Shown here in pieces: positions 30,070 to 50,636 of a DNA stretch of 64,000 nucleotides (the first letter of the stretch is position 1; each line of letters opens with the position of its first letter). The stretch lies in the IMG/VR virus record IMGVR_UViG_3300046694_000619. One strand, given 5' to 3'. The translations under genes were made by a program, and so were the position numbers. This DNA comes from a virus. Its lineage: Duplodnaviria > Caudoviricetes. The notes beneath the pieces were generated by a model. It saw only the letters and a program-made list of their open reading frames with translations. It made no database searches and had not been told where the DNA came from.

Positions 30070-32013
30070 ATGTCCACCACATCTTTCCTTCGCAAGACCG
30101 TCCTCGCTGCTGCCCTGGCTGCCAGCATGTCGGCATTCGCCTCCAGCTATTACGTCGTCGTGCCGGTTCCCGCGCGCACCGACACTGGCGCTGCGAACAT
30201 CTCCGTATCGCTGAGCGCCTATTCCCCGCCTGCGGGCTTCGTGGGCGACGCCTATCCCGGCTTCGATTTCAACCAGGCGTTGCAAGTCACCGGAGACCAG
30301 AACTTCAATCCATCGAACGTGCGCTGGTACGTATCCGGCGGCGCGCTGCCAGCGGGGCTCACGCTGAACGCTACCGGCAAACTCACCGGGACGCCGACCG
30401 CAGCCGGCACGTCAAGCTTCGTGGTCACGGCGGTGTATCGCACAAAATCAGGCACGAACACTTTTCAGGTCAGCGTGACGAACCTGCAGGTGAGTCTCGG
30501 CAGTGCGGTATTGCCCAATGCGACCCAGGGCGCAACGTACAGCTACGACATGAAGACGCGCCTGTCGGTGACAGGCGACTCGAGCTACTCGGGCGCAGGA
30601 GTCAGCTGGAGCATCGAGAGCGGCAACCTTCCCGCGGGCCTGAGCCTGGGCGCGAATGGCGTCATCACGGGCGTGGCCACCGCGGAAGGCACGTATCCTT
30701 TCACAGTCAAGGCAGCCTATCGGACAAAGTCCGGCATCCAGGGCTACCAGGTTGTCGTCGGCGCCATCACGGTCGGACTGCAAACCGCGACCTTGCCTGA
30801 TGCGAAGCAGGGCACAGCTTACAGCTACGACCTGAAGACGCTTCTCACGGTCGGCGGAGACGCGGCCTACTCGGGCGCAGGCGTGAGCTGGAGCGTCACG
30901 AGCGGCGCGCTGCCCGCCGGGCTGAGCATCGGAGCCGACGGCGTCATCACAGGGAGTGCCACTGCGGAAGGCACGTTTCCGTTCACAGTGAAGGCTGCGT
31001 ACAAAACGAAGTCCGGCACCCAGGGCTATCAGGTCGTGGTCGGGGCAATCACGGTCGAGTTGCAGCAAGCCACGCCACCGGGCGGCATTGTGGGCATTGC
31101 CTACAACAATGGCGCAGGATTCGACCTGAAGCCATCGGTGACCGTGAGCGGCGACGGAGCATATGCTGGCAGCGGCGCCGGCGTGCTGTGGTCGGTCACG
31201 AGCGGCACGTTGCCAGCGGGTCTGAGCCTGACGAACGCGGGTGTCATCGCAGGGACGCCGACTACCGCGGCGGTTTCGGCCACGGTCCAGGTCCAGGCAT
31301 CGTACAAAGGCAAGACAGCCACGCAGTCGTACTCGGTGCCCATCACCGGCTCCATCCAGCAGTTCAGCGGCTATCGCGCGTACGCAGATGGCACCTATGC
31401 GAGCACCTGTAACGGCTACCGCAACCCAAGCGCGCCGCACTACTACCAGGGCGCAACGGGAGATGGCATTTATCGCATCACCCCCGGCGGTGTGCCGTAC
31501 GACGTCTATTGCGACATGACGACGAATGGCGGCGGCTACACGGTCATCGAGGCGCTGCACGACACCCGTTACTACACGACCGCGACGTTCCTCCAAGCAC
31601 CTGCGGGTTCTCCGCCTGTCCCGGGCGAGGCCAACGGTACATACCTGCCGGCCGCGATTGCCATTGCATTGGCCAATCTGTCATCAGAGGTGCGCATCTC
31701 CGAATACGGTACCAGCAACGCAGCCTGGACAACCAGCGCGACGATGCTGAACAACCTGCGTCAAGGGCTGGTCGCCAACAACAACACGCAAACGGCCTAT
31801 GACCCAACGGCACTGTGGGCGGTTAGCTCGGCTGGCCTGACGCAATTCAACACGACCCAAAGCATTGCCGGACAGGGCGCCGTCAACTACCCGACGATTT
31901 TCTGGGCAGGCGGCAACAGCCGCGGACTGCATGTCACGGGGGGTGGTGGCGTGTCCAACGCGTCATGGCACTACGACACCCAGAACGGTCCGATGGTTGT
32001 CAGCTATCGTTGA
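30070..32013 (+). CDS. secreted putative-Ig-repeat protein with fibrinogen-like C-terminal domain
   Basis: Signal peptide AFA|SSYYVVVPVP; four LPAGL...GxIxG Ig repeats; DGIY...VYCDMTTNGGGYT. Confidence 0.85.
   Translation: MSTTSFLRKTVLAAALAASMSAFASSYYVVVPVPARTDTGAANISVSLSAYSPPAGFVGDAYPGFDFNQALQVTGDQNFNPSNVRWYVSGGALPAGLTLNATGKLTGTPTAAGTSSFVVTAVYRTKSGTNTFQVSVTNLQVSLGSAVLPNATQGATYSYDMKTRLSVTGDSSYSGAGVSWSIESGNLPAGLSLGANGVITGVATAEGTYPFTVKAAYRTKSGIQGYQVVVGAITVGLQTATLPDAKQGTAYSYDLKTLLTVGGDAAYSGAGVSWSVTSGALPAGLSIGADGVITGSATAEGTFPFTVKAAYKTKSGTQGYQVVVGAITVELQQATPPGGIVGIAYNNGAGFDLKPSVTVSGDGAYAGSGAGVLWSVTSGTLPAGLSLTNAGVIAGTPTTAAVSATVQVQASYKGKTATQSYSVPITGSIQQFSGYRAYADGTYASTCNGYRNPSAPHYYQGATGDGIYRITPGGVPYDVYCDMTTNGGGYTVIEALHDTRYYTTATFLQAPAGSPPVPGEANGTYLPAAIAIALANLSSEVRISEYGTSNAAWTTSATMLNNLRQGLVANNNTQTAYDPTALWAVSSAGLTQFNTTQSIAGQGAVNYPTIFWAGGNSRGLHVTGGGGVSNASWHYDTQNGPMVVSYR
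30511..31060 (+). repeat. intragenic tandem duplication of an Ig unit (282-bp period)
   Basis: LPNATQG...YQVVVGAITV and LPDAKQG...YQVVVGAITV are highly similar at DNA and protein level. Confidence 0.85.
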
Positions 32014-32032
32014 GGCATACCCGAGCTGAAAG

Positions 32033-32061
32033 AAAAACGCCGCGAGACTTTCGCGGCGTTT
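32033..32061. terminator. bidirectional terminator
   Basis: AAACGCCGCGA...TCGCGGCGTTT between convergent genes. Confidence 0.75.
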
Positions 32062-32068
32062 GAGTCAT

Positions 32069-32575
32069 TCAGTCTGTAGCACCGGTCAATCGTTCTGACC
32101 GCAAAACATGTAGCAATCGCCGGATGGCGATACCATCCGGGCAGGTTTTTCTGAGGTCGTAAATCCCGCAAAAGAAGAAACAGAGCCCGAAAATAGTTGC
32201 CTCATAAAAATGGGCATGCCGGAACAGCAGAAAAAACACGGGTCCCGCACAAAGGACCGCCAACGGTCCGCAAAGATAGGTCAACAGCACCTGCCACGTG
32301 TCCGGGAAGTTTCCTTCATCCACAAACGTCGTGTGGCCGTTGTTAGGCAACCAGCCCAACGTGAAGGAATAGCCTCGCACGACAACCGTAAAAATCGGCT
32401 TTGTTCCAATCCGGATACCCGTTGAGCGAACGCCAAGCAGCGCGCCAGCAACGGCATGGCCGACTTCATGAATCGCAAACACCATGTGCGCAAACAGGAT
32501 GTACACGACAATGGCGAATTGATACTGCCTGACCGCGTCTTCGAAATTCCACCAGAAAAGCTGAAACGAAACCAT
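32069..32575 (-). CDS. M50 / site-2 protease-like membrane metallopeptidase
   Basis: AIHEVGH (HExxH) inside a TM segment; CGP and PDG motifs. Confidence 0.75.
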   Translation of the reverse strand: MVSFQLFWWNFEDAVRQYQFAIVVYILFAHMVFAIHEVGHAVAGALLGVRSTGIRIGTKPIFTVVVRGYSFTLGWLPNNGHTTFVDEGNFPDTWQVLLTYLCGPLAVLCAGPVFFLLFRHAHFYEATIFGLCFFFCGIYDLRKTCPDGIAIRRLLHVLRSERLTGATD

Positions 32576-32703
32576 TTGTGTACCTCATTGAATTGGCCTA
32601 ATCAGTATAAGGGGACACGTCGCGTGCAAGCATTGCGCATCGGGACCACAGCAATAAAAAAGCGCCCAGAAAAAGGGCGCTTTAATAAAGAGAGAAGCGT
32701 CGG

Positions 32704-33093
32704 TTACTGGAGCGCACCGACGATGAAGATGCCCAGTTCGTTGGCCGTTTCTTTTGCCTCGGACTTGCGCATATCCCACGGCTGGACCAGGTCGGAACCT
32801 GCTTCAGTCACGATGCGCCACGCGGTCACGAACCAGCCTCGCTTCGTGTTGAAGCGTTCCATGCGGTCACGCTTGAAGTAGCCGACTTTCTCGAAGCCAC
32901 CCTCGCGCGGGCGGAAGGTTTCCAGCAGTTCCGCGCCACCATTGTTGCGCAACTGCTGCAAGAGGCACTGGTCGGCAGGGCTCGTGGTCACCGGATAGAT
33001 GCCACAGGTCCAGCTCGAAAAAAGCCGGTCCTTCCAGCCGCGTTTGTGTTCGAGAGCAAAACGGTTCAGCGCATTGATTTGGTCGACGTTCAT
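32704..33093 (-). CDS. hypothetical protein
   Basis: GAGGA RBS; CTATAC 37 nt upstream; terminator at 32656-32683. Confidence 0.7.
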   Translation of the reverse strand: MNVDQINALNRFALEHKRGWKDRLFSSWTCGIYPVTTSPADQCLLQQLRNNGGAELLETFRPREGGFEKVGYFKRDRMERFNTKRGWFVTAWRIVTEAGSDLVQPWDMRKSEAKETANELGIFIVGALQ

Positions 33094-33154
33094 AGATTCC
33101 TCGCAAAAAAGTAGTTGGCCTTGCAGACCCGTATAGGCTGCGGCCGCGCGAATG

Positions 33155-33179
33155 AAAAAACCCGGGCAGAAGCCCGGGT
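33155..33179 (-). terminator. intrinsic terminator
   Basis: CCCGGGC stem followed by T6 on the minus strand. Confidence 0.8.
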
Positions 33180-33206
33180 GCGAGGAGAAGTACTTGACGA
33201 AGCGCC

Positions 33207-34004
33207 TTACTTCGACGGCTTCGGAGGTTTCTGCGGCAGCTGCGCGATTTCCGCCAGTTCGTAGATGTAGACCTCGACACTGCGCATCTTGAAACCGGAC
33301 GAGTGGCCCTGGTGATTTTCGAACGACGTCACTTTCGACGAAGGCAGGCGCTGGGCAAAAAGCTTCATCAGTGCGTCACGACTCGCGTCGCAGTCACGGA
33401 TTTCCCAGTCACGGCCGTCCTGTTCCAGCACGAAGCCACGCTCCCGGAGACTTGCATGCCAGAGGACACGGCGTTCCTTGTCCGACACGGGAGTGTCCGA
33501 CTGGAAGCTGAAATCGCCGAAGAGCGAACAGCTGAACTTGGCCTTGCAACCATACTTGCCGAACGACAGGTCACTGATGTGGCCAAACCCTTCGAGGTCC
33601 CACCAGCTATTGAGCTGCTCGTCCAACTTTTTCAGACAGGCTTTCGTCACGTCTGGGCCTTGTGCAGCACCGAGCTGTGCCTCGAGCTCGCGAACGCGCA
33701 TGTTTGCCGCGCGCACCCGTGCAAAACGGTTCTCCATCTCGGCCGCAGAATCGGTCTCGATGCCAAGCAATTTTCCCAGGTCGGCCATGCGATGCTCCGC
33801 GACCGACAGGCAATTGGTCGCGAGTCCGCGCGGCAAACCGTCCTTGAACACACTCGCGTCGGGCCCTTTGAGGACGCTTGCGATTGTGCCCATCGCCTGC
33901 TGCAGGTCGAGGATGTGCTTCAAAGCGACCGCTTTCTGGTCGGCATTCAGCTCGATGATGTGGTCGTCACCATCTTCAAGCGGGAGGGTGATTTCGAGTG
34001 TCAT
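33207..34004 (-). CDS. hypothetical protein
   Basis: AAGGA RBS before ATG 34004; CTATAC 34 nt upstream. Confidence 0.72.
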   Translation of the reverse strand: MTLEITLPLEDGDDHIIELNADQKAVALKHILDLQQAMGTIASVLKGPDASVFKDGLPRGLATNCLSVAEHRMADLGKLLGIETDSAAEMENRFARVRAANMRVRELEAQLGAAQGPDVTKACLKKLDEQLNSWWDLEGFGHISDLSFGKYGCKAKFSCSLFGDFSFQSDTPVSDKERRVLWHASLRERGFVLEQDGRDWEIRDCDASRDALMKLFAQRLPSSKVTSFENHQGHSSGFKMRSVEVYIYELAEIAQLPQKPPKPSK

Positions 34005-34113
34005 GGTGTTCCTTTCATGTGTGAGTTGCCCTGACTCTGTATAGCCCGGCGCCCACGACAATATCTAATTACATGGTATACTAATTTCCATCAAACATCT
34101 GGAGTTGTCGCGC

Positions 34114-34737
34114 GTGAGCACTGAAACAAATGAGTCCCCATCGTGGGGTTCGCGGCTGCTGGACACCGCAAAATCGGCCCTGACTTCGGTGTTTCCGGCG
34201 CTTGGCGCCGTCGACGCTGCCAGGGAATTCATCTCGGAAGCCGTGGCGCAAAAGATTCGTAATGAGGCGAGCGTCAAGGCGCAGGCGCTGATTTCGCAGG
34301 CCCACCGCAAGGTCATCTTCTCCATCGTCTGGCAAAACGGCCTGCTCATGCTCTCGCTGGTGCCGGTGTACTTCCTGCGCGCGCCGTGGCCGTTCTACGT
34401 GGCGTACGCCTGCGTGTTCGGCTACTCCACGTATTCGGCTTACGAGTATCGCGGCATCATCTGGCGCCTGTGCAAGACGTTCAGCGTAACCCAGACGTTG
34501 GCGCTCGAGGTGCGCGAAGCCATCGAGACCGAACTGACCTCGCGTCAGTTTTTTGAGCGTAAGGCCGTCGAGTGGCTCGGCCCGGACATGAAACGACTGG
34601 CGGAAGACGTCGCGCGCAAACTCAAGCCGGATGTCATGATGGCCGCGTTCAATATGGCATTTACGCTCTTCACGGCGTTTATCGCGTTCCGGGTGTTCGT
34701 GATTCCGCTGCTCGAGCATCGCGCGCTGATGCATTGA
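34114..34737 (+). CDS. hypothetical membrane protein
   Basis: Three hydrophobic segments; TGGTATACT at 34074-34082; start uncertain. Confidence 0.65.
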   Translation: MSTETNESPSWGSRLLDTAKSALTSVFPALGAVDAAREFISEAVAQKIRNEASVKAQALISQAHRKVIFSIVWQNGLLMLSLVPVYFLRAPWPFYVAYACVFGYSTYSAYEYRGIIWRLCKTFSVTQTLALEVREAIETELTSRQFFERKAVEWLGPDMKRLAEDVARKLKPDVMMAAFNMAFTLFTAFIAFRVFVIPLLEHRALMH

Positions 34738-34831
34738 GCGACCTTCGCCGGCATCTTCGCCAGAATGGACGAAATAGCATTAAAAGGCTATATTATTATT
34801 TCCTGCAACCATCAGTACAAAGTAAATCCGT

Positions 34832-35212
34832 ATGAACACTGCAAGTGCACAAGGTCTCGTTTCGTTCGCCCCCGGCAAGGTCGTGGCCAGTCTTTCCGCC
34901 GACGAGGTTCGCTGCGCGCTGTCCACCGCAATGGGCTTGGGCGTGGCCCTGGTCCACGTCTCGTATCCGAATGTGGATAGCCGTAATCACAAGAGCCTCG
35001 AGTCGCTGGTGTCGAAGCTCTCGGGTCACGGTTTCGCCGAAACGGCGACGATGGTTCACGAAGAAGTGCCGTATATGGTCTTCAAAGACCTGAAGAAGGC
35101 CCTGAATGTGTACCACGAAATCCAGAAGGATTCGGTGGCCATCTCTGCATCGCTGTATTACGCCGGCGTCACTGGCCTGCAAGCCGAAGCCGCCATTCTG
35201 GCCGCTGCCTAA
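34832..35212 (+). CDS. hypothetical protein
   Basis: 126-aa ORF after an AT-rich gap. Confidence 0.6.
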   Translation: MNTASAQGLVSFAPGKVVASLSADEVRCALSTAMGLGVALVHVSYPNVDSRNHKSLESLVSKLSGHGFAETATMVHEEVPYMVFKDLKKALNVYHEIQKDSVAISASLYYAGVTGLQAEAAILAAA

Positions 35213-35271
35213 GGTCGCCTGCCGCCGCGCAAGGTGCGCGGCTTAACTGTTGGCGTTTGCTGGAGAGCGAG

Positions 35272-35637
35272 ATGGCGATAGAGGATGTTGTGTACAACGT
35301 GGACGGCAGCGTTGCTGCGTACCGGATGTCGGATGGTCGCATGCGGGTAAAGCTGCCCACGAGGGCACCGTCTGCGCCGGCAGCTCCAATGGAGCACTCG
35401 TGCACGCCTGACAGCATGGGCGAGATTCCTGCGAGCGCTCACGCCCGCAGGGACCGGGTCCTGGTGTACGCCATCATCCTGCTGGGTTCCGCCGCGCTGG
35501 GACTGTTGGGTGATGTGCCTGGCGGGTACATTCTGCCGCGCGGAATCATGGGGTTCTTCGCCGTGGTCGGCATCACTTCCGTTGTCGTGGACATTCAGCT
35601 GCGTGCTTCTAAGCGCAAGCCGCGCTCGCCTTCGTAA
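35272..35637 (+). CDS. hypothetical membrane protein
   Basis: GGAG RBS; two TM segments. Confidence 0.55.
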   Translation: MAIEDVVYNVDGSVAAYRMSDGRMRVKLPTRAPSAPAAPMEHSCTPDSMGEIPASAHARRDRVLVYAIILLGSAALGLLGDVPGGYILPRGIMGFFAVVGITSVVVDIQLRASKRKPRSPS

Positions 35638-35691
35638 ATCCGGTGGCCGGTCGACGATATACCGAACAACGACACTTCTGAAGGAACACGC

Positions 35692-36909
35692 ATGACTGCA
35701 ACTCCGCGCAAGCGCCGCTCGAGCGCAAAGGATAGGACGGACACCGCGCCGCCGGCGCTCGCGCCCATCGTCTCTCCGGTTGCGCAGGCCGGTGAGCCGG
35801 TCGAAGACCGTGCGCTGCGCCCCAAGCGCCTCGCAGACTACATCGGTCAGCAGGCGCTGCGCGCGCAGCTTGGCATTTTCCTTAACGCGGCCAAGCATCG
35901 CGCTGAGGCACTCGACCATGTCCTGCTGTCCGGCCCGCCGGGCCTGGGCAAGACGACGCTCGCGCAAATCATCGCTGCCGAGCTCGGCGTCGGCCTCAAG
36001 GTGACGACGGGGCCGGTGCTCGAGAAACCAGGCGACATTGCAGCGCTCCTCACGGGCCTGAACGCGAACGACGTGCTCTTCATCGACGAGATTCACCGGC
36101 TGCCGCCCGTCGTCGAGGAGGTGCTGTATCCGGCGATGGAAGACTACAAGCTCGACATCCTGGTCGGGGAAGGGCAGGAGGCGCGCACGGTGACCGTGCC
36201 GCTGTCGCCCTTTACGCTCGTGGGTGCCACGACGCGCGCGGGCAGTCTCTCGGCGCCGTTGCGCGACCGTTTTGGCATTACCGGTCGCATGGAGTTTTAC
36301 ACAGACGCGGAACTCGAATCCATCGTGACCCGCTCGGCAGGGCTTCTTGGCGTCGGTATGGCGCCGGGCGCCGCGCTCGAGGTCGCCATGCGTTCGCGCG
36401 GCACACCACGTATCGCCAACCGGCTGCTGCGTCGCGTGCGCGACTACGCGACCGTCACCGGGCCGAACCCGAACGAAGTCAGCAACGCCGATGCACAAGC
36501 GGCTCTCGCCATGCTTGGCGTCGACTCGCGCGGGCTGGACTCGATTGACCGCCGGCTACTTCAGGCGATGGTCGACTTTTACGGCGGCGGCCCCGTCGGC
36601 CTGAATACGTTGTGCGCGGCCATCAGCGAAGTAGAAGACACGATTGAGGATGCGGTCGAGCCGTTCCTCATCCAGCAGGGTTTCCTGCAGCGCACGCCGC
36701 GCGGACGCGTCATCACCGAGCTCGGACGCACGCATCTCGGTGCATGTCCTGGTCAGCCACCCGTGCAGGCCTCGCGCAGTGGTGGCCCGGTGTATGTGGG
36801 CGGTATCCAGCCGGCCGGGCAAGGGAAGGGCGCAGTGCTGAAGTTGGACCCGAATGGACTTGGTGTCGTGCGCGACCCGAAAACGGGCGAATACCTGCCG
36901 ACGTATTGA
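35692..36909 (+). CDS. ruvB: Holliday junction branch migration ATPase RuvB
   Basis: [65 protein letters not shown]. Confidence 0.97.
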
Positions 36910-36931
36910 ATACATAAACCGGAGCCAGGAG

Positions 36932-37225
36932 ATGAATCGAATCAAGCAGATGAGCCACGGAATGGATGTCGCGTTCTATGAGCGGCTCGCCACGGTCTTC
37001 GCATACTACGGCGCGATTATGGCGACGGCTCGCTTCTGGCTGGTTCCGGCGTTCGCCTGGGTGGACCAGCATCACCCGCAAGCCCACGAGTACGCGGTGT
37101 GGGCCATGGTATTGCTGCTTTCGCTCGTCGGGGCGGTCCTCCTGGCGCGGACGCTGGCGGCTCCCGCGCCGACGCTCCAACAACCCGCAAGGTACCCGGA
37201 GGTGGTGCGTCCGTTCAGGAATTGA
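36932..37225 (+). CDS. small membrane protein
   Basis: Two TM segments; start uncertain. Confidence 0.5.
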   Translation: MNRIKQMSHGMDVAFYERLATVFAYYGAIMATARFWLVPAFAWVDQHHPQAHEYAVWAMVLLLSLVGAVLLARTLAAPAPTLQQPARYPEVVRPFRN

Positions 37226-37284
37226 TACGGGCTTTCTATACAGGAAAGCAGGACCCATTCAATCAAGGACAGACGGAGCACATC

Positions 37285-37761: not shown

Positions 37762-37911
37762 GATTTGTCTCTCCCTCGCCCAGCGATTCTGCTGGGCTTT
37801 TTCATTTTCAACGCCAGCTGACGTGTTGCCGGTCCTGAGGATTCGGGCGATGTCGGCTATACGCTCACGTAGGAACCTTTAATATTGAGTGAATTGCCCA
37901 GAGGACACATC

Positions 37912-39930: not shown

Positions 39931-39992
39931 CCTGCTTCACGGGCGCGCAAGCGTTTTGAGCTATACCACAGACGCCACTTATCGCTTCGACC

Positions 39993-41924
39993 ATGCACCT
40001 CACAAACCTGTTTAAAGCTTCGCTGCTGAGCGCGGCGCTCGCGGCAAGCCTCCCGGCATTCGCCTCCGACTATTACGTCGTTGTTCCGGTACCCAATCGC
40101 ACCGCTGCCGGCAACGTTTCGGTGTCGCTCGCCGGGTTCGGCCTGCCCGCGGCGCAGGTCGGTTTGCCGTACGCGGGTTTCGACTTCAGGTCGCTGCTTT
40201 CCGTCACCGGCGACGCCAGCTACAACGGCTATGGCGTTCGCTGGAGTGTGGTCTCGGGCAGCCTGCCGGCGGGCCTGACACTTAACAGCGATGGGACGCT
40301 CACCGGTACGCCGAGCGCGGGGGGCTCGTCGACTTTCCAGGTGATGGCCAGCTACAAGAGCAAGGCGGGCCAGCAGGCGTACCAGATTTATACGGCGGCC
40401 GTCACGGTCGGACTGGCGAGCGGCGCGCCGCCAGTGGGTCTGGTCGGTCAGGCCTATAGCTACGACCTGCGGCCGCTCCTGTCGGTCGCCGGCGACTCGG
40501 CATACACCGGCGCGGGTGTCACGTGGACTGTCGTGTCCAACACGCTGCCCGCGGGCCTCTATCTCACGAGCGACGGATTCATCGGCGGCACGCCGACAGC
40601 GAGCGGTACGGGAAGCGTCACCGCGCGCGCATCATACAAGGGCGTAAACGGCCAGCAGACCTATCAGGTGGTCACGCAGGCCATCAGCGTGACACTCGGC
40701 AGCACGACGCTGCCTGCGGCCTCGCAAGGGATGCCGTACGCTGGCTACGACTTCCGCTCGCTCGTCAGCAGCAACGAGCCGACGTTCCAGCCGGGCAGCA
40801 CAACCTGGTCCGTCGTGGGCACGCTTCCCGCGGGCCTCGCGCTCGATGCGAGCGGGGTGCTAAGCGGCACGCCGACGGCGTCCGGTTCGCAACCCTTCAC
40901 GCTCAAGGCGAGTTACAAGGGCTACGTCGGCCAGCAGACCTACACGCTTATCAGCGCGCCGAGTTCACTGCTTTCCACGTCGACGCCCCCGCTCGCATTC
41001 CCTGGGGTGAGCGACTACACGGTGGCCACGCAACCGGTCACCTTGACCAACAGTGGTGACGCAGCGGGCACCCTGTCCCTGGCCTCCGACTCGCCGAACT
41101 TCACGGTAAGCGGCTGCGCGACGATTGCGGCAAAAAGCAGCTGCACGGCGAACGTCACCTTCTATCCGACTGGCGTTACCAGCTACTCGGCCCAGTTGAC
41201 CGTCAGCGGTGCGACGAGTGGCGACATCAAAGTCGCGCTCTCCGGCTCTGCGGTGGCAAACGTGAAGACGTTTGCTGCGAGCACGAACTGGACGGTGCCC
41301 GCCAAACTCACGCACGCGCAGGTGTTGGTGGTCGGCGGTGGCGGCGGCCCGATGGCCACAGGAAACTTCGTCCCTGGCCTTGGCGGCATTGCCGGGGGTG
41401 GCGGACAGGTCATCTATAACGCGAGCTATTCGCTCACGCCTAACGCCAATATGCCAGTCACCGTGGGTGTTGGCGGCAGTGTCGGGCCGGATGCGCAGGA
41501 GAATGGCACGCCTTCTGTGTTCGGCGCTATTACGGCCTCGGGCGGCTACTCCGGCTACGAAGGTGGTGCATCCGGCGCGGGCTATCCGAGCGGCGGCGGC
41601 GCACAAAACAACCTGCAGGGTGGCGGGGGCGGTGGCGCGGGTGGCGCGGGCGGCGTGCCAAGCGCGACGACGGGCGGCAAGGGCGGAGCAGGTCTTTGCT
41701 ACGCCCTGACCGGGACGATGACCTGCTACGGTGGCGGTGGTGGTGGCGGAGTCGGTACCGACCCGGCGACGCAGACCCCGGGGGGTAACGGAGGCGGTGG
41801 TTTGGGCGGTACGCCAACCATCGTAGGCGGACCGGGCGCGGACAATACCGGCGGTGGCGCGGGCGGCGCGGGCGGCGGCGGTCGCAGTGTTGGCGGCAGC
41901 GGTGTCGTGATTGTCGTGTACTGA
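39993..41924 (+). CDS. secreted putative-Ig-repeat protein with ASH-like domain and glycine-rich C-terminal domain
   Basis: AFA|SDYYVVVPVPNRT; three LPAGL repeats; TLTNSG...C...SCT.NVTF.P; VVGGGGG...GGSGVVIV. Confidence 0.85.
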   Translation: MHLTNLFKASLLSAALAASLPAFASDYYVVVPVPNRTAAGNVSVSLAGFGLPAAQVGLPYAGFDFRSLLSVTGDASYNGYGVRWSVVSGSLPAGLTLNSDGTLTGTPSAGGSSTFQVMASYKSKAGQQAYQIYTAAVTVGLASGAPPVGLVGQAYSYDLRPLLSVAGDSAYTGAGVTWTVVSNTLPAGLYLTSDGFIGGTPTASGTGSVTARASYKGVNGQQTYQVVTQAISVTLGSTTLPAASQGMPYAGYDFRSLVSSNEPTFQPGSTTWSVVGTLPAGLALDASGVLSGTPTASGSQPFTLKASYKGYVGQQTYTLISAPSSLLSTSTPPLAFPGVSDYTVATQPVTLTNSGDAAGTLSLASDSPNFTVSGCATIAAKSSCTANVTFYPTGVTSYSAQLTVSGATSGDIKVALSGSAVANVKTFAASTNWTVPAKLTHAQVLVVGGGGGPMATGNFVPGLGGIAGGGGQVIYNASYSLTPNANMPVTVGVGGSVGPDAQENGTPSVFGAITASGGYSGYEGGASGAGYPSGGGAQNNLQGGGGGGAGGAGGVPSATTGGKGGAGLCYALTGTMTCYGGGGGGGVGTDPATQTPGGNGGGGLGGTPTIVGGPGADNTGGGAGGAGGGGRSVGGSGVVIVVY

Positions 41925-42556: not shown

Positions 42557-42665
42557 GGCCGCTCCTTTTTTGTGTTTGCCTGCAAGCGTATAGCAGCCTG
42601 GCAGCTTGCGCGAAAAGAAAACCTCCACGGCAGTGCTGCGCGTGGAGGTGGTGAGGTGCTACGTG

Positions 42666-43037: not shown

Positions 43038-43048
43038 GAAACCTCCTT

Positions 43049-43414
43049 TTATATCCTGAGACCCGTTCCAGCGAGCAGTGCCGCCTCGCCAACAACAGGA
43101 TGCAACCTTGCGTTTTCTCCCGCGTGGCCTGCATGACCCGGCAGCTTCGTCGTCCAGATTTCCTTGACGCCTTCGAGCTTCTCCTGCTCGGTGAGCTCGC
43201 GCACACCAAACAGGATGCCGTAGTCGTACGAGTAGCTCACGCGGCGGCCGCTCCAGTCTTCGCCCGGATACGTATGGGGCAGAATCATGTCGAGTGTCAC
43301 GGCGTGCAGCTTTGCCTTGACAATCGCGCGGGCGCGCGTTCGTGCCGTTGCGCGGAACATCGTCGCGCCGCGGCAGATAGGCCATTGAAGCCAGACTTCA
43401 GCAACAAAGCTCAC
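43049..43414 (-). CDS. hypothetical protein
   Basis: GTGA overlap with the upstream gene. Confidence 0.55.
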   Translation of the reverse strand: MSFVAEVWLQWPICRGATMFRATARTRARAIVKAKLHAVTLDMILPHTYPGEDWSGRRVSYSYDYGILFGVRELTEQEKLEGVKEIWTTKLPGHAGHAGENARLHPVVGEAALLAGTGLRI

Positions 43415-43854
43415 GCTGACACCTCGTCGCCATAAATCGTGACGACGCGCAGCACCCAGAACCAGTAGTCCCGCGGGCTGTCCGCACATTCCTCGACCAG
43501 CGGCCAGTTGCTGCGTGGATGCGCCAGGTGCTCGCCGAGCTCGTTGCCGTTGGCATGCTTGTCGATGAGCGCCTGAACCTTCACATCCAGTTCCTTGCGC
43601 ACACGAGCCGCGATGTCGAGAAGCCACTTCTCCTGCTTCTCCGACAGCGGCAGGTACGTGTTCAGACGCTGCTGGCAGTTGCGAACGAGACTACGCTCGT
43701 TTTCCGCGAGCGTCTCGCATGCTTCCTGACAGAGATTCAGCGCGCGACGCAGCACCTTCTCGTGCGCGGCCGCTTTCGCCTCCGCTGCCTCGCGTTCAAC
43801 GCGCATCTGCTCACGCACGGCCGGGTCATTCAATCGAGCGAAATCAATAGCCAT
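43411..43854 (-). CDS. hypothetical protein (paralog of 43883..44458)
   Basis: GGAGG RBS; QEKWLLDIA, ANGN..GEH, YW.W.L. Confidence 0.7.
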   Translation of the reverse strand: MAIDFARLNDPAVREQMRVEREAAEAKAAAHEKVLRRALNLCQEACETLAENERSLVRNCQQRLNTYLPLSEKQEKWLLDIAARVRKELDVKVQALIDKHANGNELGEHLAHPRSNWPLVEECADSPRDYWFWVLRVVTIYGDEVSA

Positions 43855-43882
43855 CTTCTTCCTCCGTTATCGGTTTTTCTGG

Positions 43883-44458
43883 TTACATAGCCAACTGTTC
43901 GCGAGTGACCTCGCCGCTTTCCACGCGGTCGGCGCAGTTGCCGCACAGACCGTCCCAGCCTTCATCGTCGAGCTGAGCGCCGCATTCATCACAGTGCTCT
44001 TCCTCACCGCCGTTGCGCACGAGTTCGCTGAGCGCCCAATGCCAGTACGCCGTGGGCTTCAGGCCCTTGACGCCGGCCAGCGGCCACTTTTCGCGCGGAT
44101 ACGTGGGGTGCTCGCCGTCAGCATTGCCGTTGGCCCACTTGTGGACCAGCCGGTCAATGTCTTCGGCCACTTCCCCGTTGGTGCGTTGGGCGATGTCGAG
44201 CAGCCACTTCTGCTGCCCAGCGGTCAACGGCACCACCGCCTTGAGCAGCTCGCGACACGAACGCACGAGCCCCAATTCAGGCTGCGTGAGGTCTTCACGG
44301 GCCGCGAGACACGTATGAATCGCAACGCGCAGCGTGTAGTACTGCGCACGCTCCGCATTGCTCATCGCATCGACCTTCGCCTGACGCTGCAGTACTTCGC
44401 GGCGTTGATGCAACTCAGCCACATTTGCGGGGTCATCCAGCTTGGCGTTGTGTTTCAT
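43883..44458 (-). CDS. hypothetical protein with C-terminal CxxC..CxxC
   Basis: GGAGG RBS; QQKWLLDIA, ANGNADGEH. Confidence 0.7.
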   Translation of the reverse strand: MKHNAKLDDPANVAELHQRREVLQRQAKVDAMSNAERAQYYTLRVAIHTCLAAREDLTQPELGLVRSCRELLKAVVPLTAGQQKWLLDIAQRTNGEVAEDIDRLVHKWANGNADGEHPTYPREKWPLAGVKGLKPTAYWHWALSELVRNGGEEEHCDECGAQLDDEGWDGLCGNCADRVESGEVTREQLAM

Positions 44459-44477
44459 TTTTCTATCCTCCGGGTTG

Positions 44478-45113
44478 TCATTCAAAATAAAAGCGGGGCG
44501 TCGTCAGCGCGATGTAGCAGGTCTGGTCATCGAGGTCGCCCACCTGCTCCTTCTTTGCGGTGTTCACGTACTCGATGACCCCATAACCGCGGGCCACCAG
44601 GATGTCGCGGTACGCCTGCGCGATGTCCGTCATCAACTGCGTCTCAGCGCCTTCAGCCTTGAGCATGCTCACGCGCGGCCAGTCCTTCTCTGCCGTCATT
44701 ACATCGAGACAGGCCTGCGGGCTTGCATGACCCCGGAGGGCTGCATACCGCGCGAGCAGGTCAGGACGCTCAGTCAAGGTGACCTTGCCGATGTCATGGG
44801 CCAGTGCGTGATAGTCCGCACCCACAAACGCGACGTGACCGCCGGTTTCCGGATGCGACAGCATGCAAGTCGAGCCTGGAAAATCCACGAAACGCTGGTT
44901 CAGTTTGTAGACTTCGCCTACGAGCCGCACCGGAATGACCCGGCCGCCCGTCCGCTTGCCATGACCCTTTCGCCCTGGATTTCTCAAGGCAAACTTGTTG
45001 GCGAGCGCGGGCGTCTTCGAGAAGTGTGGCCCGACCACGCGGTCGATTGAAAATGTGCCCGGCTCGAACGTGTCGAAATCGACCTTCGTGCCGTGATAAC
45101 CAATAATTTCCAT
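44478..45113 (-). CDS. putative ADP-ribosyltransferase-fold protein
   Basis: YHGT..DFDTF...GPHFS...LANKFA...GRVIPV.L...GY..I.Y.N; CTATAC 35 nt upstream. Confidence 0.6.
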   Translation of the reverse strand: MEIIGYHGTKVDFDTFEPGTFSIDRVVGPHFSKTPALANKFALRNPGRKGHGKRTGGRVIPVRLVGEVYKLNQRFVDFPGSTCMLSHPETGGHVAFVGADYHALAHDIGKVTLTERPDLLARYAALRGHASPQACLDVMTAEKDWPRVSMLKAEGAETQLMTDIAQAYRDILVARGYGVIEYVNTAKKEQVGDLDDQTCYIALTTPRFYFE

Positions 45114-45305
45114 ACCCTACCTCCAGATGTGTTGTTTCCTCTGGAGTCGTATAGAGAAATACGAAGGCTCGAACTTGCCCGGAAGTTGACAAATACGTAT
45201 TGTACGGTAATCTATGTGACGTTGCCAGTTAACGCTGAGGCTCCGTCCGGATGGATGTTGCTGTCAAAACGCTATACGATTGACCCAACAATCAAGGAGT
45301 GCCCC

Positions 45306-45608
45306 GTGGCTGACCGCCTGCGTGAGAGTTACCAGAAGCTGATGCGCGAGCCGTTCTATCGGGCCCGCGCCGCCAACGCCCGCGCGAAGAAGCTCGAGCA
45401 GCGCGTCTACTCGCTCATCACCGCCGTGCTGCTCTTCGGGCTGTTCGGCTCGGGCGCGGTGTGGGAGCTGCAGGGGCCCGATACGTTCTGGTTTGGCGTG
45501 GCGGCCGCGGTCGTCGCGCTCTACAGCCTGGCCGTATTCCTGATTGACTGGCCGGCCCTCGCCATCGACCTGCGCGCGCGGGAAGCGCTCGACGCGGGCT
45601 CGCGCTGA
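45306..45608 (+). CDS. small membrane protein (paralog of 46923..47243)
   Basis: AAGGAG RBS before GTG 45306; CTATAC 28 nt upstream; two TM segments. Confidence 0.65.
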   Translation: MADRLRESYQKLMREPFYRARAANARAKKLEQRVYSLITAVLLFGLFGSGAVWELQGPDTFWFGVAAAVVALYSLAVFLIDWPALAIDLRAREALDAGSR

Positions 45609-45696
45609 GCCCTCCCCCTTGCGCGCCTCAATGAAAAAACCGCGACCATGAAGGCCGCGGTTGAGGTGCAGTTTGAGTCCGAGGTTACGCCAGAGA

Positions 45697-46785
45697 TTAA
45701 GCCGCCGGCGCCATCATTGCCTCGCGCAATGCGACGGCGCGCTCGAGTTTGCCCTTGGCGAGCCTCTGGTAGTCATCCTTGTTGGTCTTCACGTACGCGT
45801 TCGCGCCGGTGACCTCGACGAAATCGCGCAGCACATCCATGGCGAGCAGGAAGTGCGACAGGTCGAGGTAGTTCAGCGCATCCGTCATACCAAGCCACAT
45901 CGAGGATGCCGGTTGCGTCAGGGTGTCTTCGAACGCGAGCGCGAGGTAGATGCAGAACGACAGGCCGTACTGCTCGCCCATCCCCAGCATGAACCACGCG
46001 ATGTCCGAGCGACGCCCGTGCCGCTCAATCATCACATCCCAGCGACCTTCCCACAGTTCGTACTCGGCACCCATGACCCGTTTCACGAGCGTGTTGGCCA
46101 GCGCTGTGATGCGCGCGCGTTCCGGGTGGTCCAGCAGCTTCTGCAGCCAGACTTCCGTGTCAGCGACGCGCACAAACGGATGCGTGACGGTGCTCACGAA
46201 ATCGCGTGGCGCCGGCTCGAATGAGTGCGGGTCCATGCGCTGCACTTCGAACATCGGAAGCTTCTCCGACGCACGCGGTTCGCCGAACACATTGGTGAGC
46301 CGCGTCTTCAGCTCAGCGGGTGTGCACACGATTTTGCGAACGCCGCGTGTCTCGTGCAGGAGATTGCGCGCCATTTCCTGGTTGCCCGGCACCTTCAGCC
46401 AGTCATCCAGGTCCACGAGATACAGATAAGCGTGAGGACCGTACCAGTCGTCAGACTTGTCCAGCCACATCCCGATTTTCATGCGAAAGGTCTCGGCGGC
46501 TACATCCTGCCAGACCTTCGAGGTGCCGCGCGAGCGCCAGCGCTCAACTTCCGCGGCAGCGTTCGCTTCGGCTGCGGTGCCGAGTAGCTCGGTGAGCGAC
46601 ACGAACACGACGCCGCCCGGTTTGGCCGCAACCGGCTCAACCAGATGCACGAGCCCTTCTTTCTCGACACCCGACAACCCCAGCTGCGTGAGCAGCTCGA
46701 GGATGCGCGCGGGTCCGGTTTCGTCCGGCGCCGGCAGCTTGTAGCCAGCGTGCGCGTTGCGAATCTTTTCCCAGTTCGACGTCAT
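45697..46785 (-). CDS. hypothetical protein with degenerate ABC/SMC-like C-terminal motifs
   Basis: GGAGG RBS; LGMGEQ...LAL...TDALNYLD; no Walker A seen. Confidence 0.65.
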   Translation of the reverse strand: MTSNWEKIRNAHAGYKLPAPDETGPARILELLTQLGLSGVEKEGLVHLVEPVAAKPGGVVFVSLTELLGTAAEANAAAEVERWRSRGTSKVWQDVAAETFRMKIGMWLDKSDDWYGPHAYLYLVDLDDWLKVPGNQEMARNLLHETRGVRKIVCTPAELKTRLTNVFGEPRASEKLPMFEVQRMDPHSFEPAPRDFVSTVTHPFVRVADTEVWLQKLLDHPERARITALANTLVKRVMGAEYELWEGRWDVMIERHGRRSDIAWFMLGMGEQYGLSFCIYLALAFEDTLTQPASSMWLGMTDALNYLDLSHFLLAMDVLRDFVEVTGANAYVKTNKDDYQRLAKGKLERAVALREAMMAPAA

Positions 46786-46922
46786 ATTTTTCCTCCGGTT
46801 ATTGAACGTTCCTGGAACGGTATAGCTCGTGGCCACACGCGCGCCGCCGGCCGGCGCATCCGAGGGCAGAACATGACCGGGTGCGCGAGCTATACGAATG
46901 ACTTCAATTTCGGGGGCTCTCC

Positions 46923-47243
46923 ATGTCCGACCGCCAGGCTCGCGCGTATCGCGTGATGATGACCGACTCCTACATGCGCGAACGCGCGCGGCGCAGTCGT
47001 CTGTTGCCGCTTCGTGCGCGCATGGCCAGCGTGGTAGCGAGTGCGATGGCGTTTGGTGCGCTCACCCCGGCCGTGCCTCTCGTACTCGACCTGCCACTGG
47101 GTGGCCTGCTCGCCGTGGGTACTGCTGCGGCCGCACTCTTCAGCCTGCAGCGGTTCCTCTTTGACTCGACGATTCTTTACGTCGACCTGCGCCGGCTTGA
47201 CGCCGAGCTGCGCGGCCGTGGCCCGGTAGACGACAAAGCCTAG
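46923..47243 (+). CDS. small membrane protein
   Basis: CTATAC 27 nt upstream; two TM segments; DR....Y..MM...Y.R.R. Confidence 0.6.
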   Translation: MSDRQARAYRVMMTDSYMRERARRSRLLPLRARMASVVASAMAFGALTPAVPLVLDLPLGGLLAVGTAAAALFSLQRFLFDSTILYVDLRRLDAELRGRGPVDDKA

Positions 47244-47632
47244 CTGTTTTCGCGGATGAATTCTCGGTTTCGCCGCGCGAGGTTGATGCCCGTGCCCTTG
47301 ACGCTCGGGCGTCGACGGATAGCCGCCTGATGCCGCGCCACGCGTTTTTTCTCAAGCATGCGTTCGCGCAGCCGCAGCCAGAGGAGCTGGTTTGCTTCCC
47401 CGTTTGCCTCGCCGGATGCCTCGTCTGATGCGCGGCGCGTCGCCCGGCGTATCGCGAGACGGGCCATTGCCACGACGTAGTGCGACGAGTGATTGCCAGA
47501 CGGCGCGCCACGTTGCGCCTTGACGGCGGCCTTAAGCGCCTGCCGGTCGAGACGGTGCAGCAGCCTGCGATTGGCTACCCGGTTGACGGGCCGGTCGACG
47601 TGCCGGATGCGTTGTTCCCAGACGATGCTCAT
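47240..47632 (-). CDS. possible Arg-rich basic protein
   Basis: Open frame with GGAG before ATG 47632 (alternative start 47776); atypical composition. Confidence 0.35.
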   Translation of the reverse strand: MSIVWEQRIRHVDRPVNRVANRRLLHRLDRQALKAAVKAQRGAPSGNHSSHYVVAMARLAIRRATRRASDEASGEANGEANQLLWLRLRERMLEKKRVARHQAAIRRRPSVKGTGINLARRNREFIRENS

Positions 47633-47804
47633 TGCGCGGCGCACTCCCTGTTTTTCACGACGCCTGGATTTGGGCGGCGTCCCGTTCGAAGTATATGTGA
47701 GCGCGCTGCCGTGACCGCCTGGCCACCCCCGCGGCGAGAGCGAATTTTCCGGAGCGGACCGTTTCGGGACCGACATGTTTTTTTCCGAGGTAGACGCGTT
47801 TTTC

Positions 47805-48070
47805 CGCCCCCGAAATCTCCCTGCCTCAAAAGTCAATTTACGGACAGAGCCCGGCGGACCGCGAACTTCGACCCCTTTGCCGAGCGCTTTTTCGGAAATG
47901 CCGGGACCCGGATAGCCCGAATCTGGAAATGCCATTTTACGGAAATGCCGGTTAAGGCTATTCCGGAAAAGCGAAAGGCGTCAATCCAGAGGGACGAGGG
48001 GTTTGGCTGAGCCTGATGTCCGTAAATTGACTTCTAGTTATAGGGCGATTTTTGAGGCGGACGGGGGCGG
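47805..48070. repeat. long interrupted inverted repeat enclosing three GGAAATGCC direct repeats
   Basis: Perfect 17-bp IR AAGTCAATTTACGGACA (47830-47846) / TGTCCGTAAATTGACTT (48017-48033); outer arms GCCTCAAAA and CCGCCCCCG. Confidence 0.8.
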
Positions 48071-48113
48071 GAGGCCGTGATGCTGAAGCAGTTATTCGCG
48101 CTACGCGTGCAAG

Positions 48114-48617
48114 CAACGCAAAGTCTGTCGGGCCGAACAATAAAGTCTGTCGCGGCAACGCACGCGGAATGTTCTCGTTGCTTTCGCTGAACCTGGCGTG
48201 CAGCATGAATTTTTCGACGGAGGATGTCATGCGCACATCGGAGCGCAATGCTCGCGACGAAAACATAGAGGCCCTGGCAGGCGCTCTTTTTCATGTTCTG
48301 GCTACCAACCCAATGGGATGCCGCTGGACCGAAATTCCAGAGGCAATTGGTCTGCTGCTCAAGCTCTTTGGCACCACGCTCATCACGATTACAGATGCCA
48401 ATAACGAGGAGGCGGAGAACATCTTGAACGACATGAATTCCCGCTTCGACAAGGGCTACAAAAGACCTACATCCATCTTTTTCACGAAGTAACCACGCCG
48501 GGACTTGAGCGCGGATGAGCCGACGGCCACATATTCTGTGGCACGCCAGCAACAGCCACGCTCAAGTCCCGACAGACTTTATTGTTCGAGGCCCGACAGA
48601 CTTAATTGTTTGAATCA
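48114..48617. mobile_element. possible non-autonomous Tn7-like mini-element or remnant
   Basis: Two AAAGTCTGTCG sites at 48114-48154 and two inverted copies at 48568-48611, resembling the Tn7 TnsB site core ACAATAAAGTCT; no TSD found. Confidence 0.45.
48229..48492 (+). CDS. hypothetical protein
   Basis: GGAGG RBS; 87 aa; lower GC than neighbours. Confidence 0.6.
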   Translation: MRTSERNARDENIEALAGALFHVLATNPMGCRWTEIPEAIGLLLKLFGTTLITITDANNEEAENILNDMNSRFDKGYKRPTSIFFTK

Positions 48618-50636
48618 CGGTGCAAGTGCGTCGACAGGCACAGAGCTGCTGTTGAGCGTTCCATCGCCGAGTGCGCCTGTCGTGTTATCACCCCAGCACT
48701 TCAAGCCAGTGCCCAGCTGCGCGCAGCTGAAGTAATACCCGTCCAGCACGCGCGTCACGCCTGCGCCCAGGCCGATGACCGTCGAAGGCAATGACACGTT
48801 CGTGCGTGTGTTGTTGCCAATTTGGCCCCAGTTGTTATAGCCCCAGCACAAGGCCGCAGAATTTGCCGTGGCGCAGGCGTGGATGTTTCCCGCGCTCACG
48901 CTCGTGACGCCGGCGCCCAGGCCAGTGACCGCAACGGGCACGTTGCTGTTGGTCAGGCTGCCGTTACCCAGTTGACCGGCGCTATTCAGCCCCCAGCAAT
49001 AGAGTCCGCTGTTGACAATCGCGCAAGTAAAGTTGGCGCCAAGCGCAAAGCCCGTGACGCCCGACGTCATTCCGGTCACCTGAACAGGAACGCCGCTTTG
49101 CACGGTATTGCCGTTGCCCAGCTGCCCAGACGTGCCGGCTCCCCAACATTTCAGCCCGCCCGAGACCAGGGCGCAGGTGTGATACCACGTTCCCGCAACC
49201 CGGGTCACGCCGGAGGTGAGTCCGATAACCTGAACCGGCACGGAGCTATCGGTCAGCGTGTTGTTGCCCAACTGATAGTTCCCGTTAAGGCCCCAGCATT
49301 TCGCGCTGCCAGATACCGTTGCGCACGTATGGTAGTACCCGGCCGACAGCGTCGACACACCGCTCGCCAGTCCGCTCACCAACGTCAGGACGCCGCTGCT
49401 CGCCGTCGAATTGTTGCCCAGCTGGCCGTAGCCGTTGTATCCCCAACAGTACGCGCCCCCGTTAATCTGTGCGCACGTGTGATAGTAGCCGGCCGTGATG
49501 CTTGTCACAGGCCCTGGCAGCCCGACAACGTTGACCGGGACGAGACTGTCCGTCGTGGTTCCATTGCCAAGCTGGCCATAACCGTTAGAGCCCCAGCACT
49601 GCAGACTGCCCGACGGAGTGACGACGCAGGTGTGGTGGCCGCCGGTCGCAACCTGCACCGCCTGAATGGGCGCGCCGTTAACCGTGAGCGTGTAGACCTG
49701 CTGACCTGTTTTGGCCCGGTAGCTGGCCACGACCTGGAACGACGACCCTGCATCGTTGCGCGCGGTCGGCGTGCCGCTGAGCAGCCCATCGGCCGACACG
49801 CTCAAGCCCGCGGGCAGCCCGGTTGCGGTGAAGCTTGCCTTGCTCGCGTCAAACGAATCGTCGCCGCTCACGCTGAGCTGTGTCTTGAAGTCGTAGGGCG
49901 TGTAGGCGGTGTTCGCGCGCGCCGCGGGCAGCGTTGCCGTCGCGAGGCTCACCGCAATATCGAGCGTCACCACCTGATAGGTTTGCTGCCCATTGAAGCC
50001 GCGGTACGTCGCGCGGGCGGTTACTGAGCCGGAACCCGAGGTCACCGGTGTGCCGCCAATCCAGCCATCGCTGGTGAGATACAGCCCCGAGGGCAGCGTG
50101 CTCGACACCACAGACCACGTGACACCTGTGCCGTTGTATGAGGCATCGCCGGTAACCGACAGAAGCGAGCGCAGGTCATAGCTGTAGGCTTCCCCCACGA
50201 TGGCCTGGGGCGGCGCGCCGGCCGAGAGTGCGACCGTGATGCTGGCTACGTAAATCTGGTATCCCTGCTGACCCGCTTTGGTTTTGTACGAGGCCATCAC
50301 CTGGAAGCTCGATGTGCCCCCGGCCGTCGGTGTGCCGCTGACCGTACCATCGCTGTTGAGTGTGAGCCCCGCAGGCAGGCTGCCGGAGGTCAGACTCCAG
50401 CGCACGCCATAGCCGGTGTACGCAGCGTCGCCGGTGACCGCGAGCAGGCTTTTCAGGTTAGCGCCCGCGTACGGCTGACCGACAAGCCCACTGGGTAGGG
50501 CGCTGGCGCTGAGAGAAACTCCGATATTGCTTGTCGTTGTGCGATTGGGGACTGGCACCACGACAAAGTAGGAACTGGCGAGCGAGCCTAGGCTAGTCAG
50601 CGCGAGTGTCGCGGCCAGCAATGAGTGTTTAAGCAT
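48615..50636 (-). CDS. secreted putative-Ig-repeat protein with RCC1-like beta-propeller
   Basis: SLA|SSYFVVVPVPNRT; three LP[AS]GL repeats; seven AGxxHTCA...CWGxNxxGQLG repeats. Confidence 0.9.
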   Translation of the reverse strand: MLKHSLLAATLALTSLGSLASSYFVVVPVPNRTTTSNIGVSLSASALPSGLVGQPYAGANLKSLLAVTGDAAYTGYGVRWSLTSGSLPAGLTLNSDGTVSGTPTAGGTSSFQVMASYKTKAGQQGYQIYVASITVALSAGAPPQAIVGEAYSYDLRSLLSVTGDASYNGTGVTWSVVSSTLPSGLYLTSDGWIGGTPVTSGSGSVTARATYRGFNGQQTYQVVTLDIAVSLATATLPAARANTAYTPYDFKTQLSVSGDDSFDASKASFTATGLPAGLSVSADGLLSGTPTARNDAGSSFQVVASYRAKTGQQVYTLTVNGAPIQAVQVATGGHHTCVVTPSGSLQCWGSNGYGQLGNGTTTDSLVPVNVVGLPGPVTSITAGYYHTCAQINGGAYCWGYNGYGQLGNNSTASSGVLTLVSGLASGVSTLSAGYYHTCATVSGSAKCWGLNGNYQLGNNTLTDSSVPVQVIGLTSGVTRVAGTWYHTCALVSGGLKCWGAGTSGQLGNGNTVQSGVPVQVTGMTSGVTGFALGANFTCAIVNSGLYCWGLNSAGQLGNGSLTNSNVPVAVTGLGAGVTSVSAGNIHACATANSAALCWGYNNWGQIGNNTRTNVSLPSTVIGLGAGVTRVLDGYYFSCAQLGTGLKCWGDNTTGALGDGTLNSSSVPVDALAP

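Follow-up and report, generated by a model that had tools for sequence, protein, structure and literature searches.

A conserved N-terminal tag on predicted exported Ig-stalk proteins with exchangeable lectin- and adhesin-type heads

Families of proteins that are constant at one end and variable at the other raise the question of what the constant end is for. This question is posed by three dispersed genes within a stretch of 64,000 nucleotides (record IMGVR_UViG_3300046694_000619; the whole stretch is referred to here as the window). Each encodes a predicted signal peptide, a short and almost invariant segment at the mature N-terminus (the tag), a stalk of immunoglobulin-like (Ig) repeats, and a C-terminal head. 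The safest statement about the family to which they belong is that its lectin- or adhesin-type binding modules, carried on Ig stalks of variable length, make up an exported repertoire. An earlier reading of the window (the original prediction) had gone further, proposing that the constant N-terminus is a docking, donor-strand or export signal for a shared surface structure and that the heads are interchangeable. The three genes and their parts are as follows.

30070..32013, + strand: member 1, 647 aa; signal peptide, tag, four He_PIG repeats, fibrinogen/intelectin-like head
30070..30141, + strand: predicted signal peptide of member 1, aa 1-24, ending AFA (translation; the AxA pattern is family-wide)
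30142..30180, + strand: mature N-terminus and tag of member 1, SSYYVVVPVPART (translation and motif search)
31360..32010, + strand: head of member 1, aa 431-647, fibrinogen-related/X-type-lectin-like (Fibrinogen_C, GGGWT_bact and PDB sequence matches)
39993..41924, + strand: member 2, 643 aa; signal peptide, tag, three He_PIG repeats, ASH/HYDIN-like Ig domain, Gly_rich_2
40065..40103, + strand: mature N-terminus and tag of member 2, SDYYVVVPVPNRT (translation and motif search)
41268..41921, + strand: head of member 2, aa 426-643, glycine-rich domain PF21722 (Pfam; phrog_2295 match)
48615..50636, - strand: member 3, 673 aa; signal peptide, tag, three He_PIG repeats, seven-blade RCC1 propeller
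50538..50576, - strand: mature N-terminus and tag of member 3, SSYFVVVPVPNRT (translation and motif search; unstructured in the structure model)
48618..49670, - strand: head of member 3, aa 323-673, RCC1-like beta-propeller (WD40_RLD 240 bits, RCC1 194 bits)

The outline of these proteins given in the original prediction was borne out. All three open reading frames (ORFs) translate at 647, 643 and 673 aa without internal stops, and each product begins with a Sec-type signal (basic n-region, hydrophobic core and an AxA-type signal peptidase site, the leaders ending AFA or SLA) followed by the shared motif. The three to four Ig repeats per protein are recognized by Pfam as He_PIG domains (PF05345), four in member 1 and three each in members 2 and 3, with scores of 137.6, 66.8 and 93.2 bits against a cut-off of 24. 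The closeness of proteins 2 and 3 at their N-termini amounts to ~70% identity over Ig1-Ig2 and 43% over Ig3, after which the heads are unrelated. Signatures of autotransporters, intimin-invasin and two-partner secretion (TPS) proteins and of a lipobox are all missing from the three proteins in Pfam and NCBIfam, as expected for products described as having no beta-barrel, lipobox or anchor. With the family defined by a signal peptidase I (SPase I) signal, [YF][YF]VVVP within ~12 residues and a He_PIG-type Ig1, all three proteins belong to it, and a regular-expression search for the motif finds these three only in the window.

The three heads are indeed unrelated, as judged from Pfam, NCBIfam and the translations: a fibrinogen/intelectin-like domain, an ASH-like Ig domain with Gly_rich_2, and a seven-blade RCC1 propeller. 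The head of gene 1 matches Fibrinogen_C (PF00147) at 26.7 bits against a cut-off of 22, over profile positions 8-52 only, and the NCBIfam model GGGWT_bact (NF040941) at 39.2 bits against 30. Its sequence matches among PDB structures are XEEL, intelectin-1 and FIBCD1, in each case limited to ~40-57 residues around YCDxxxxGGGW. The Gly_rich_2 domain of gene 2 is almost complete (60.6 bits against a cut-off of 24.3, E 2.9e-16, profile positions 5-225 of 226) and also matches phrog_2295. It is preceded by an ASH/HYDIN-type Ig domain that is sub-threshold in Pfam and a confident fold in an AlphaFold 2 (AF2) model, in which the head as a whole has a predicted local distance difference test (pLDDT) score of 64, with values <50 in the Gly-rich segments. 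The head of gene 3 matches WD40_RLD at 240 bits (cut-off 150) and RCC1 at 194 (cut-off 21.7), and seven CWG...GQLG blades are visible in the translation.

These proteins are members of a large family. A 45-position profile spanning the signal, the tag and the first strand was used in a HMMER search of 1.84 billion representative proteins (E<=0.001), and identified 208 clusters at 50% identity, with each listed match lying within the first ~90 residues of its protein. Pfam finds He_PIG in 99 of the 115 members scanned, and in the N-termini displayed the tag is followed by Ig1-type sequence of the same kind. When residues 1-235 of protein 3 served as the query of a word-indexed search, >120 close clusters were obtained at 44-88% identity. 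The strict form [YFW][YFW]V[VI]VP stands behind a signal peptide in ~105 of the 120 clusters listed, and most others have a variant or are missing the N-terminus. Below ~45% identity the matches become generic He_PIG proteins of Acidobacteria, Planctomycetes and others. The stalk varies from 1 to 7 or more Ig repeats; short members have a single repeat, and the longest member, at 2411 aa, has up to about 20 Ig domains. The profile search also recovered members of 300-350 aa along with fragments, which a separate word-index look-up for proteins <352 aa with this N-terminus had missed for lack of sensitivity.

The tag itself is conserved to an extreme degree. In an alignment of 247 sequences (effective number, Neff, about 197) it is a 12-residue segment at the mature N-terminus with the consensus [SA][DSNQ][YF][YF]VVVP[VLI][PKQ][GNA][RKH] and Ala at -1, so that the core [YF][YF]VVVP occupies mature residues 3-8. 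Position 3 is aromatic in all 247 sequences and position 4 in 244/247; V6 is present in 244/247 and P8 in 246/247. The adjoining Ig1 drops to ~30% identity across the family and is no better conserved than Ig2. In most members the tag begins 2 residues past the AxA site, and one subfamily has 7-10 additional residues ahead of it. Comparison of orthologues gives the same picture, with identities of 88-100% in a 16-residue window around the tag, 80-95% in stalks, 61-70% in heads and 60-100% in signal peptides; the heads diverge faster than the stalks. Third codon positions within the tag vary freely among paralogues of the window and related loci, and because these synonymous sites differ, the tag is kept as a peptide, rather than as a DNA signal or through recent gene conversion. 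A search of the ESM Atlas with the tag region gave no usable match.

The distribution of the tag is restricted. None of 115 generic long He_PIG proteins carries the motif anywhere, including those with PF03797, and searches of 185,579 species-representative genomes, PLSDB, INPHARED and IMG/VR found no tagged members, only generic He_PIG matches without the tag. The concern that the motif might be common in unrelated chromosomal proteins was therefore not realized. Members come from Burkholderia and Paraburkholderia (named sources are Burkholderia ubonensis, B. vietnamiensis, B. multivorans and Paraburkholderia) and from soil metagenomes, with several members per contig of 200-720 kb and contigs recurrently of about 580-720 kb. 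Among the listed clusters, at least eight fall on one 699-kb contig and at least five on a contig of 720,352 bp. In a 640-kb B. ubonensis contig the locus tags of members are both tandem and dispersed, and at least five family genes stand in tandem within 12 kb of a 572-kb metagenome contig (760-11870 of the extracted locus). This cluster includes minimal forms composed of one Ig repeat and an SPRY head. Giant plasmid-like elements of Burkholderia-type soil bacteria seem to be the only place where the family occurs. The pC3 megaplasmid described in the literature is a different replicon.

At the other end of the proteins, a wide range of binding folds is found as heads. In the first 120 clusters there are ~20 fibrinogen-like heads, ~18 with ASH/HYDIN only, ~12 with Gly_rich_2, 7 with RCC1 and 6 of the GP38 phage-adhesin type, alongside TSP1, Big_9, PAW, LamG, SPRY, SUEL lectin, discoidin and chagasin-type domains. 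A further 115 representatives add LamG_3 (31), Fibrinogen_C (31), RCC1 (9), Gly_rich_2 (4), SPRY (4), SUEL (2), Lcl_C (2) and F5/8C (2). No enzyme or toxin families occur among the 25 families shown for these 115 representatives or in the precomputed Pfam lists of members. On a tree of the tag and Ig1, the six commonest head types require 16 changes, compared with a minimum of 5 and with 44.7 for shuffled labels, which indicates that heads are mostly inherited yet have repeatedly been swapped between stalk lineages. Well-supported branches force at least two origins for 5/6 of these head types. Family searches, head catalogue and tree together support the proposal that the family is polymorphic, keeping the mature N-terminus constant while stalks differ in length and binding heads are exchanged.

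The window also contains a feature that could relate to head exchange at the DNA level. The stalk regions of genes 2 and 3 (40194-40595 and 50046-50447) form a 402-nt inverted repeat, 78% complementary and with its arms 9.45 kb apart, and recombination between them would flip the intervening segment, trading heads. Switching of the shufflon type was rejected: the heads are in separate genes, and the sole long inverted repeat is this pair of diverged stalks (78% over 402 nt).

The relationship of the tag to the stalk was analyzed with an AF2 monomer model of mature protein 3 (residues 21-330), for which the input was a 68-row alignment. The model has a pLDDT of 93.7, with the three Ig sandwiches at 96-98, and the repeats have comparable opening strands (IGVSLS in Ig1, ITVALS in Ig2 and IAVSLA in Ig3). 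The first ~14 residues are without secondary structure at a pLDDT of about 66 (about 66-74 over the first 20 residues). The simplest deflationary view, that the motif is just strand 1 of Ig1, does not agree with this monomer, where the tag is left outside the domain. In an alignment of the repeats that includes the sequence flanking them upstream, the tag occupies the place of the last (G) strand of a preceding repeat, plus an inserted FVVVPVPN, and the internal repeats are without the VVVPVP insertion. By sequence, then, the tag resembles an orphan strand with a proline stop.

Our preferred suggestion, held tentatively and at less than even confidence, is that the tag serves as a beta-strand handle, by which a single shared partner would export the proteins, tether them or both. 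It is favoured because the tag is extremely conserved against a diverging background, is exposed in the model, looks like an orphan strand, and belongs to a family limited to one kind of element. Cleavage by signal peptidase would leave a short, hydrophobic, proline-ended segment with the core [YF][YF]VVVP near its start, followed by a rigid stalk of He_PIG domains acting as a spacer. The lectin- or adhesin-type head would bind a ligand, probably a surface glycan or protein on another cell. The tag would pair by strand addition with the shared partner, whether encoded by the element or supplied by the host envelope, and this partner would bring all members of the repertoire through the outer membrane, hold them at the cell surface or do both, one device serving many heads.

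Several observations weigh against a handle of this type. Neither the profile-search matches nor the Pfam scans gave a tag that lacked a He_PIG-type Ig1 behind it; as the tag is always seen in this company, it is not demonstrably a portable signal, and a fully portable sorting signal might be expected on other architectures too. No partner was identified among the neighbours scanned with Pfam (40 window proteins and 7 from related loci), and the genes that adjoin family members vary between loci. The signal peptide and its cleavage site are assigned by sequence rules. An AF2 monomer, furthermore, would not be expected to distinguish a free tag from one packed weakly in cis on Ig1 or engaged in a strand-swapped dimer.

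Among other explanations, the tag could be an export signal only, recognized in the periplasm by a route of translocation through the outer membrane, with no later role, so that the products are released as soluble lectins. Comparable elements would be the N22 segment of CsgA, read by the CsgG channel, or a strand similar to a TonB box. In TonB boxes a beta-branched hydrophobic run comes after an acidic residue, and the tag has a loose resemblance to them. Release would also fit with the lack of a membrane anchor, lipobox or barrel in the three proteins, and with a tag placed immediately after the signal peptide and modelled as flexible by AF2. However, the neighbours scanned around members include no dedicated channel gene, stalks of up to about 20 Ig domains suit surface display better than a free lectin, and a secretion signal limited to a single architecture would be unusual. 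We regard this explanation as unlikely.

A bolder form of the handle proposal is that YYVVVP is a new envelope address label of giant plasmid-like elements, plugging swappable lectin heads into one element-encoded surface device, possibly an F-type mating apparatus, to choose cells or host surfaces including conjugation recipients. This, too, seems improbable at present. The link to conjugation is circumstantial and comes solely from a related 205-kb metagenome contig (Ga0255336_100098), where TraW, TraU and TrbC of an F-type type IV secretion system lie 5-9 kb upstream of one member; no tra genes were found in the window.

Self-association provides a further possibility, in which the tag swaps or zips onto the Ig1 or the tag of another member, giving homo- or heterodimers with multivalent, cell-bridging heads. 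Classical cadherins use an N-terminal A*-strand in this way, with an aromatic anchor and a proline hinge (mature DWVIPP), and the aromatic pair, beta-branched run and proline of the tag are similar to it. The He_PIG domain is a cadherin-like Ig. Foldseek neighbours of the stalk model are tandem Ig and cadherin ectodomains and bacterial adhesin stalks, and among the listed matches the cadherin ectodomains have the highest query-normalised TM-scores (0.36-0.41). The constant presence of Ig1 behind the tag would be explained, and strands of this kind stay undocked in AF2 monomer models. Against these similarities, the tag and Ig1 show no clear covariation: the best average-product-corrected (APC) mutual information is 0.094, compared with a maximum of 0.239 elsewhere, and involves variable flank positions only. 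Ig1 is not conserved above Ig2, and the subfamily with 7-10 residues before the tag indicates that a free N-terminus beside the aromatics is not required. The proteins also differ from classical cadherins in having no Cadherin match above threshold in Pfam, a Tyr/Phe rather than Trp anchor, and linkers that read ...YQIYVASITV..., with no acidic clusters and no Ca-binding motifs. Self-association appears quite doubtful.

The position of the tag in the repeat alignment, at the G strand of a previous repeat, would also be expected if it were a structural leftover, the last strand of a lost N-terminal repeat kept to cap Ig1 or to aid folding or signal-peptidase processing, and the tag is never found apart from Ig1. 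This is very unlikely. Six near-invariant residues across at least 208 clusters, between a signal peptide and an Ig1 that diverge freely, represent far more constraint than capping would call for; in the AF2 model the tag does not pack on Ig1, and internal repeats manage without the insertion. A reading of the proteins as phage tail fibres was rejected on account of the Sec signal and of the absence of the family from phage collections.

The combination of a constant anchor with variable tips is already known in other systems. The closest described analogue in its logic is the family of mosaic adhesive trimer (MAT) fibres of Bdellovibrio. Their signal peptide precedes a constant module at the N-terminus, which presumably attaches to some as yet unidentified element on the surface of the producing cell, and they likewise have an elongated stalk and variable tips with lectin folds, with ~20 paralogues per genome and tip swapping inferred (Caulton et al. 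2024, PMC10769870). The two families differ in that MAT chains intertwine as trimers, their constant domain is ~130 aa long, many have S74 chaperone-protease ends and their genes are on a predator chromosome, whereas the tagged family has a constant peptide of 12 residues, a stalk modelled as a monomeric He_PIG string, and a location on giant plasmid-like elements. Phage receptor-binding proteins and tail fibres, including the GP38-type adhesins (PF05268), similarly combine a conserved N-terminal attachment part with exchangeable C-terminal modules, and some heads of the tagged family are GP38 or Gly_rich_2 domains that are found in phages too. Phage fibres, however, have no Sec signal and are attached to virions, whereas no virion genes were seen with the tagged family and no members in phage or virus collections; comparison of the family heads with phage genomes by tblastn gave no match.

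Plasmids provide another parallel. The PilV adhesins of IncI thin pili (the R64 shufflon and TP114) reportedly set recipient specificity in conjugation through alternative tips. Like the tagged family they are encoded on plasmids and keep the N-terminal part constant while the C-terminal tips alternate, but PilV is a type IV minor pilin that has a prepilin leader, and inversion of DNA inside a single gene changes its tip, whereas the tips of the tagged family are carried by separate genes behind an SPase I-type signal. A class III prepilin leader (cleavage between G and F/M, then xxxE) is not present in the tagged proteins, whose leaders end AxA followed by S/D-Y-Y. The N-terminal extensions of chaperone-usher pilins and of TasA-like donor-strand fibres share with the tag a short, hydrophobic, beta-prone mature N-terminus outside the fold of the protein itself. 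Chaperone-usher subunits, though, are incomplete Ig domains that lack the G strand and accept a donor strand, whereas all three Ig domains of member 3 are modelled as complete (pLDDT >95), and neither a PapD-like chaperone nor an usher was detected in the Pfam scans of neighbours. The layout of member 1, IgSF-like domains followed by a fibrinogen-related head, is that of mollusc FREPs and recalls intelectins (X-type lectins); these are animal innate-immunity lectins, and the match of member 1 to them is limited to ~40-57 residues.

Searches of the literature and of curated models found no description of the tag, the family or these elements; what is new is a tag of 12 residues, a monomeric stalk of He_PIG domains and a confinement to giant plasmid-like elements. 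Should the tag prove to be a docking or export label, it would define an envelope sorting signal of Gram-negative bacteria, simple and of about six residues, together with a partner for which no description was found. The family would then amount to a natural set of tools, built from tag, stalk and head modules. Its heads (LamG, fibrinogen/intelectin-like, RCC1, SPRY, SUEL, discoidin and GP38-like) would reveal the binding targets that giant plasmids of soil Burkholderiaceae impose on their hosts, with a bearing on the spread of the elements and on host colonization of fungi, plants and other bacteria. Even an ordinary explanation of the tag leaves a family of at least 208 clusters that Pfam and NCBIfam models do not describe beyond their generic domains.

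Each of the three genes had been credited with its own CTATAC motif, and the copies concerned are listed here.

30036..30041, + strand: CTATAC upstream of member 1, promoter-like and element-wide
39961..39966, + strand: CTATAC upstream of member 2, promoter-like and element-wide
50699..50704, - strand: CTATAC upstream of member 3, promoter-like and element-wide

One copy does lie 30-65 nt before each start, but the motif is not specific to the family, as the window has 28 copies compared with 4.4 expected from shuffles. Nearly every copy is followed 25-70 nt downstream by a Shine-Dalgarno sequence with its start codon, and the copies often come just past the terminator hairpin of the previous gene; examples are at 12552, 26461, 37857 and 45272 on the + strand, and 33136, 42593, 51517 and 63422 on the - strand. 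There is no obvious -35 sequence. The motif also precedes family genes in three related metagenome loci (L002, L004 and L005). It resembles a -10-type element of a replicon-wide promoter, which would drive mostly monocistronic genes.

The genes surrounding the family in the window include RuvB, an RNB nuclease, SLT, ClpP, MCP and many ORFs without a Pfam match. Directly upstream of gene 1 are a putative outer-membrane porin, sub-threshold and similar to TorF/Gcw_chp (26525-27286), and a histidine kinase with a LuxR-type regulator (27700-29892); these may be an envelope partner or a local regulator. On the contig that carries the tra genes, a Sak-type single-strand annealing protein and a YqaJ-like recombinase lie downstream of the member (features of this contig are at 1041-4645, and at 13194-14834 and 19439-20389, of the extracted locus). 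Just 3' of the gene 3 stop, a perfect 19-nt inverted repeat (48134-48152 and 48570-48588) brackets 417 nt, and its right arm overlaps two tandem 24-nt direct repeats (48562-48609). Elsewhere in the window, the minus-strand ORFs at 43411-43854 and 43883-44485 share 77 nt at 73% identity (43494-43570 and 44074-44150), and are probably tandem paralogues.

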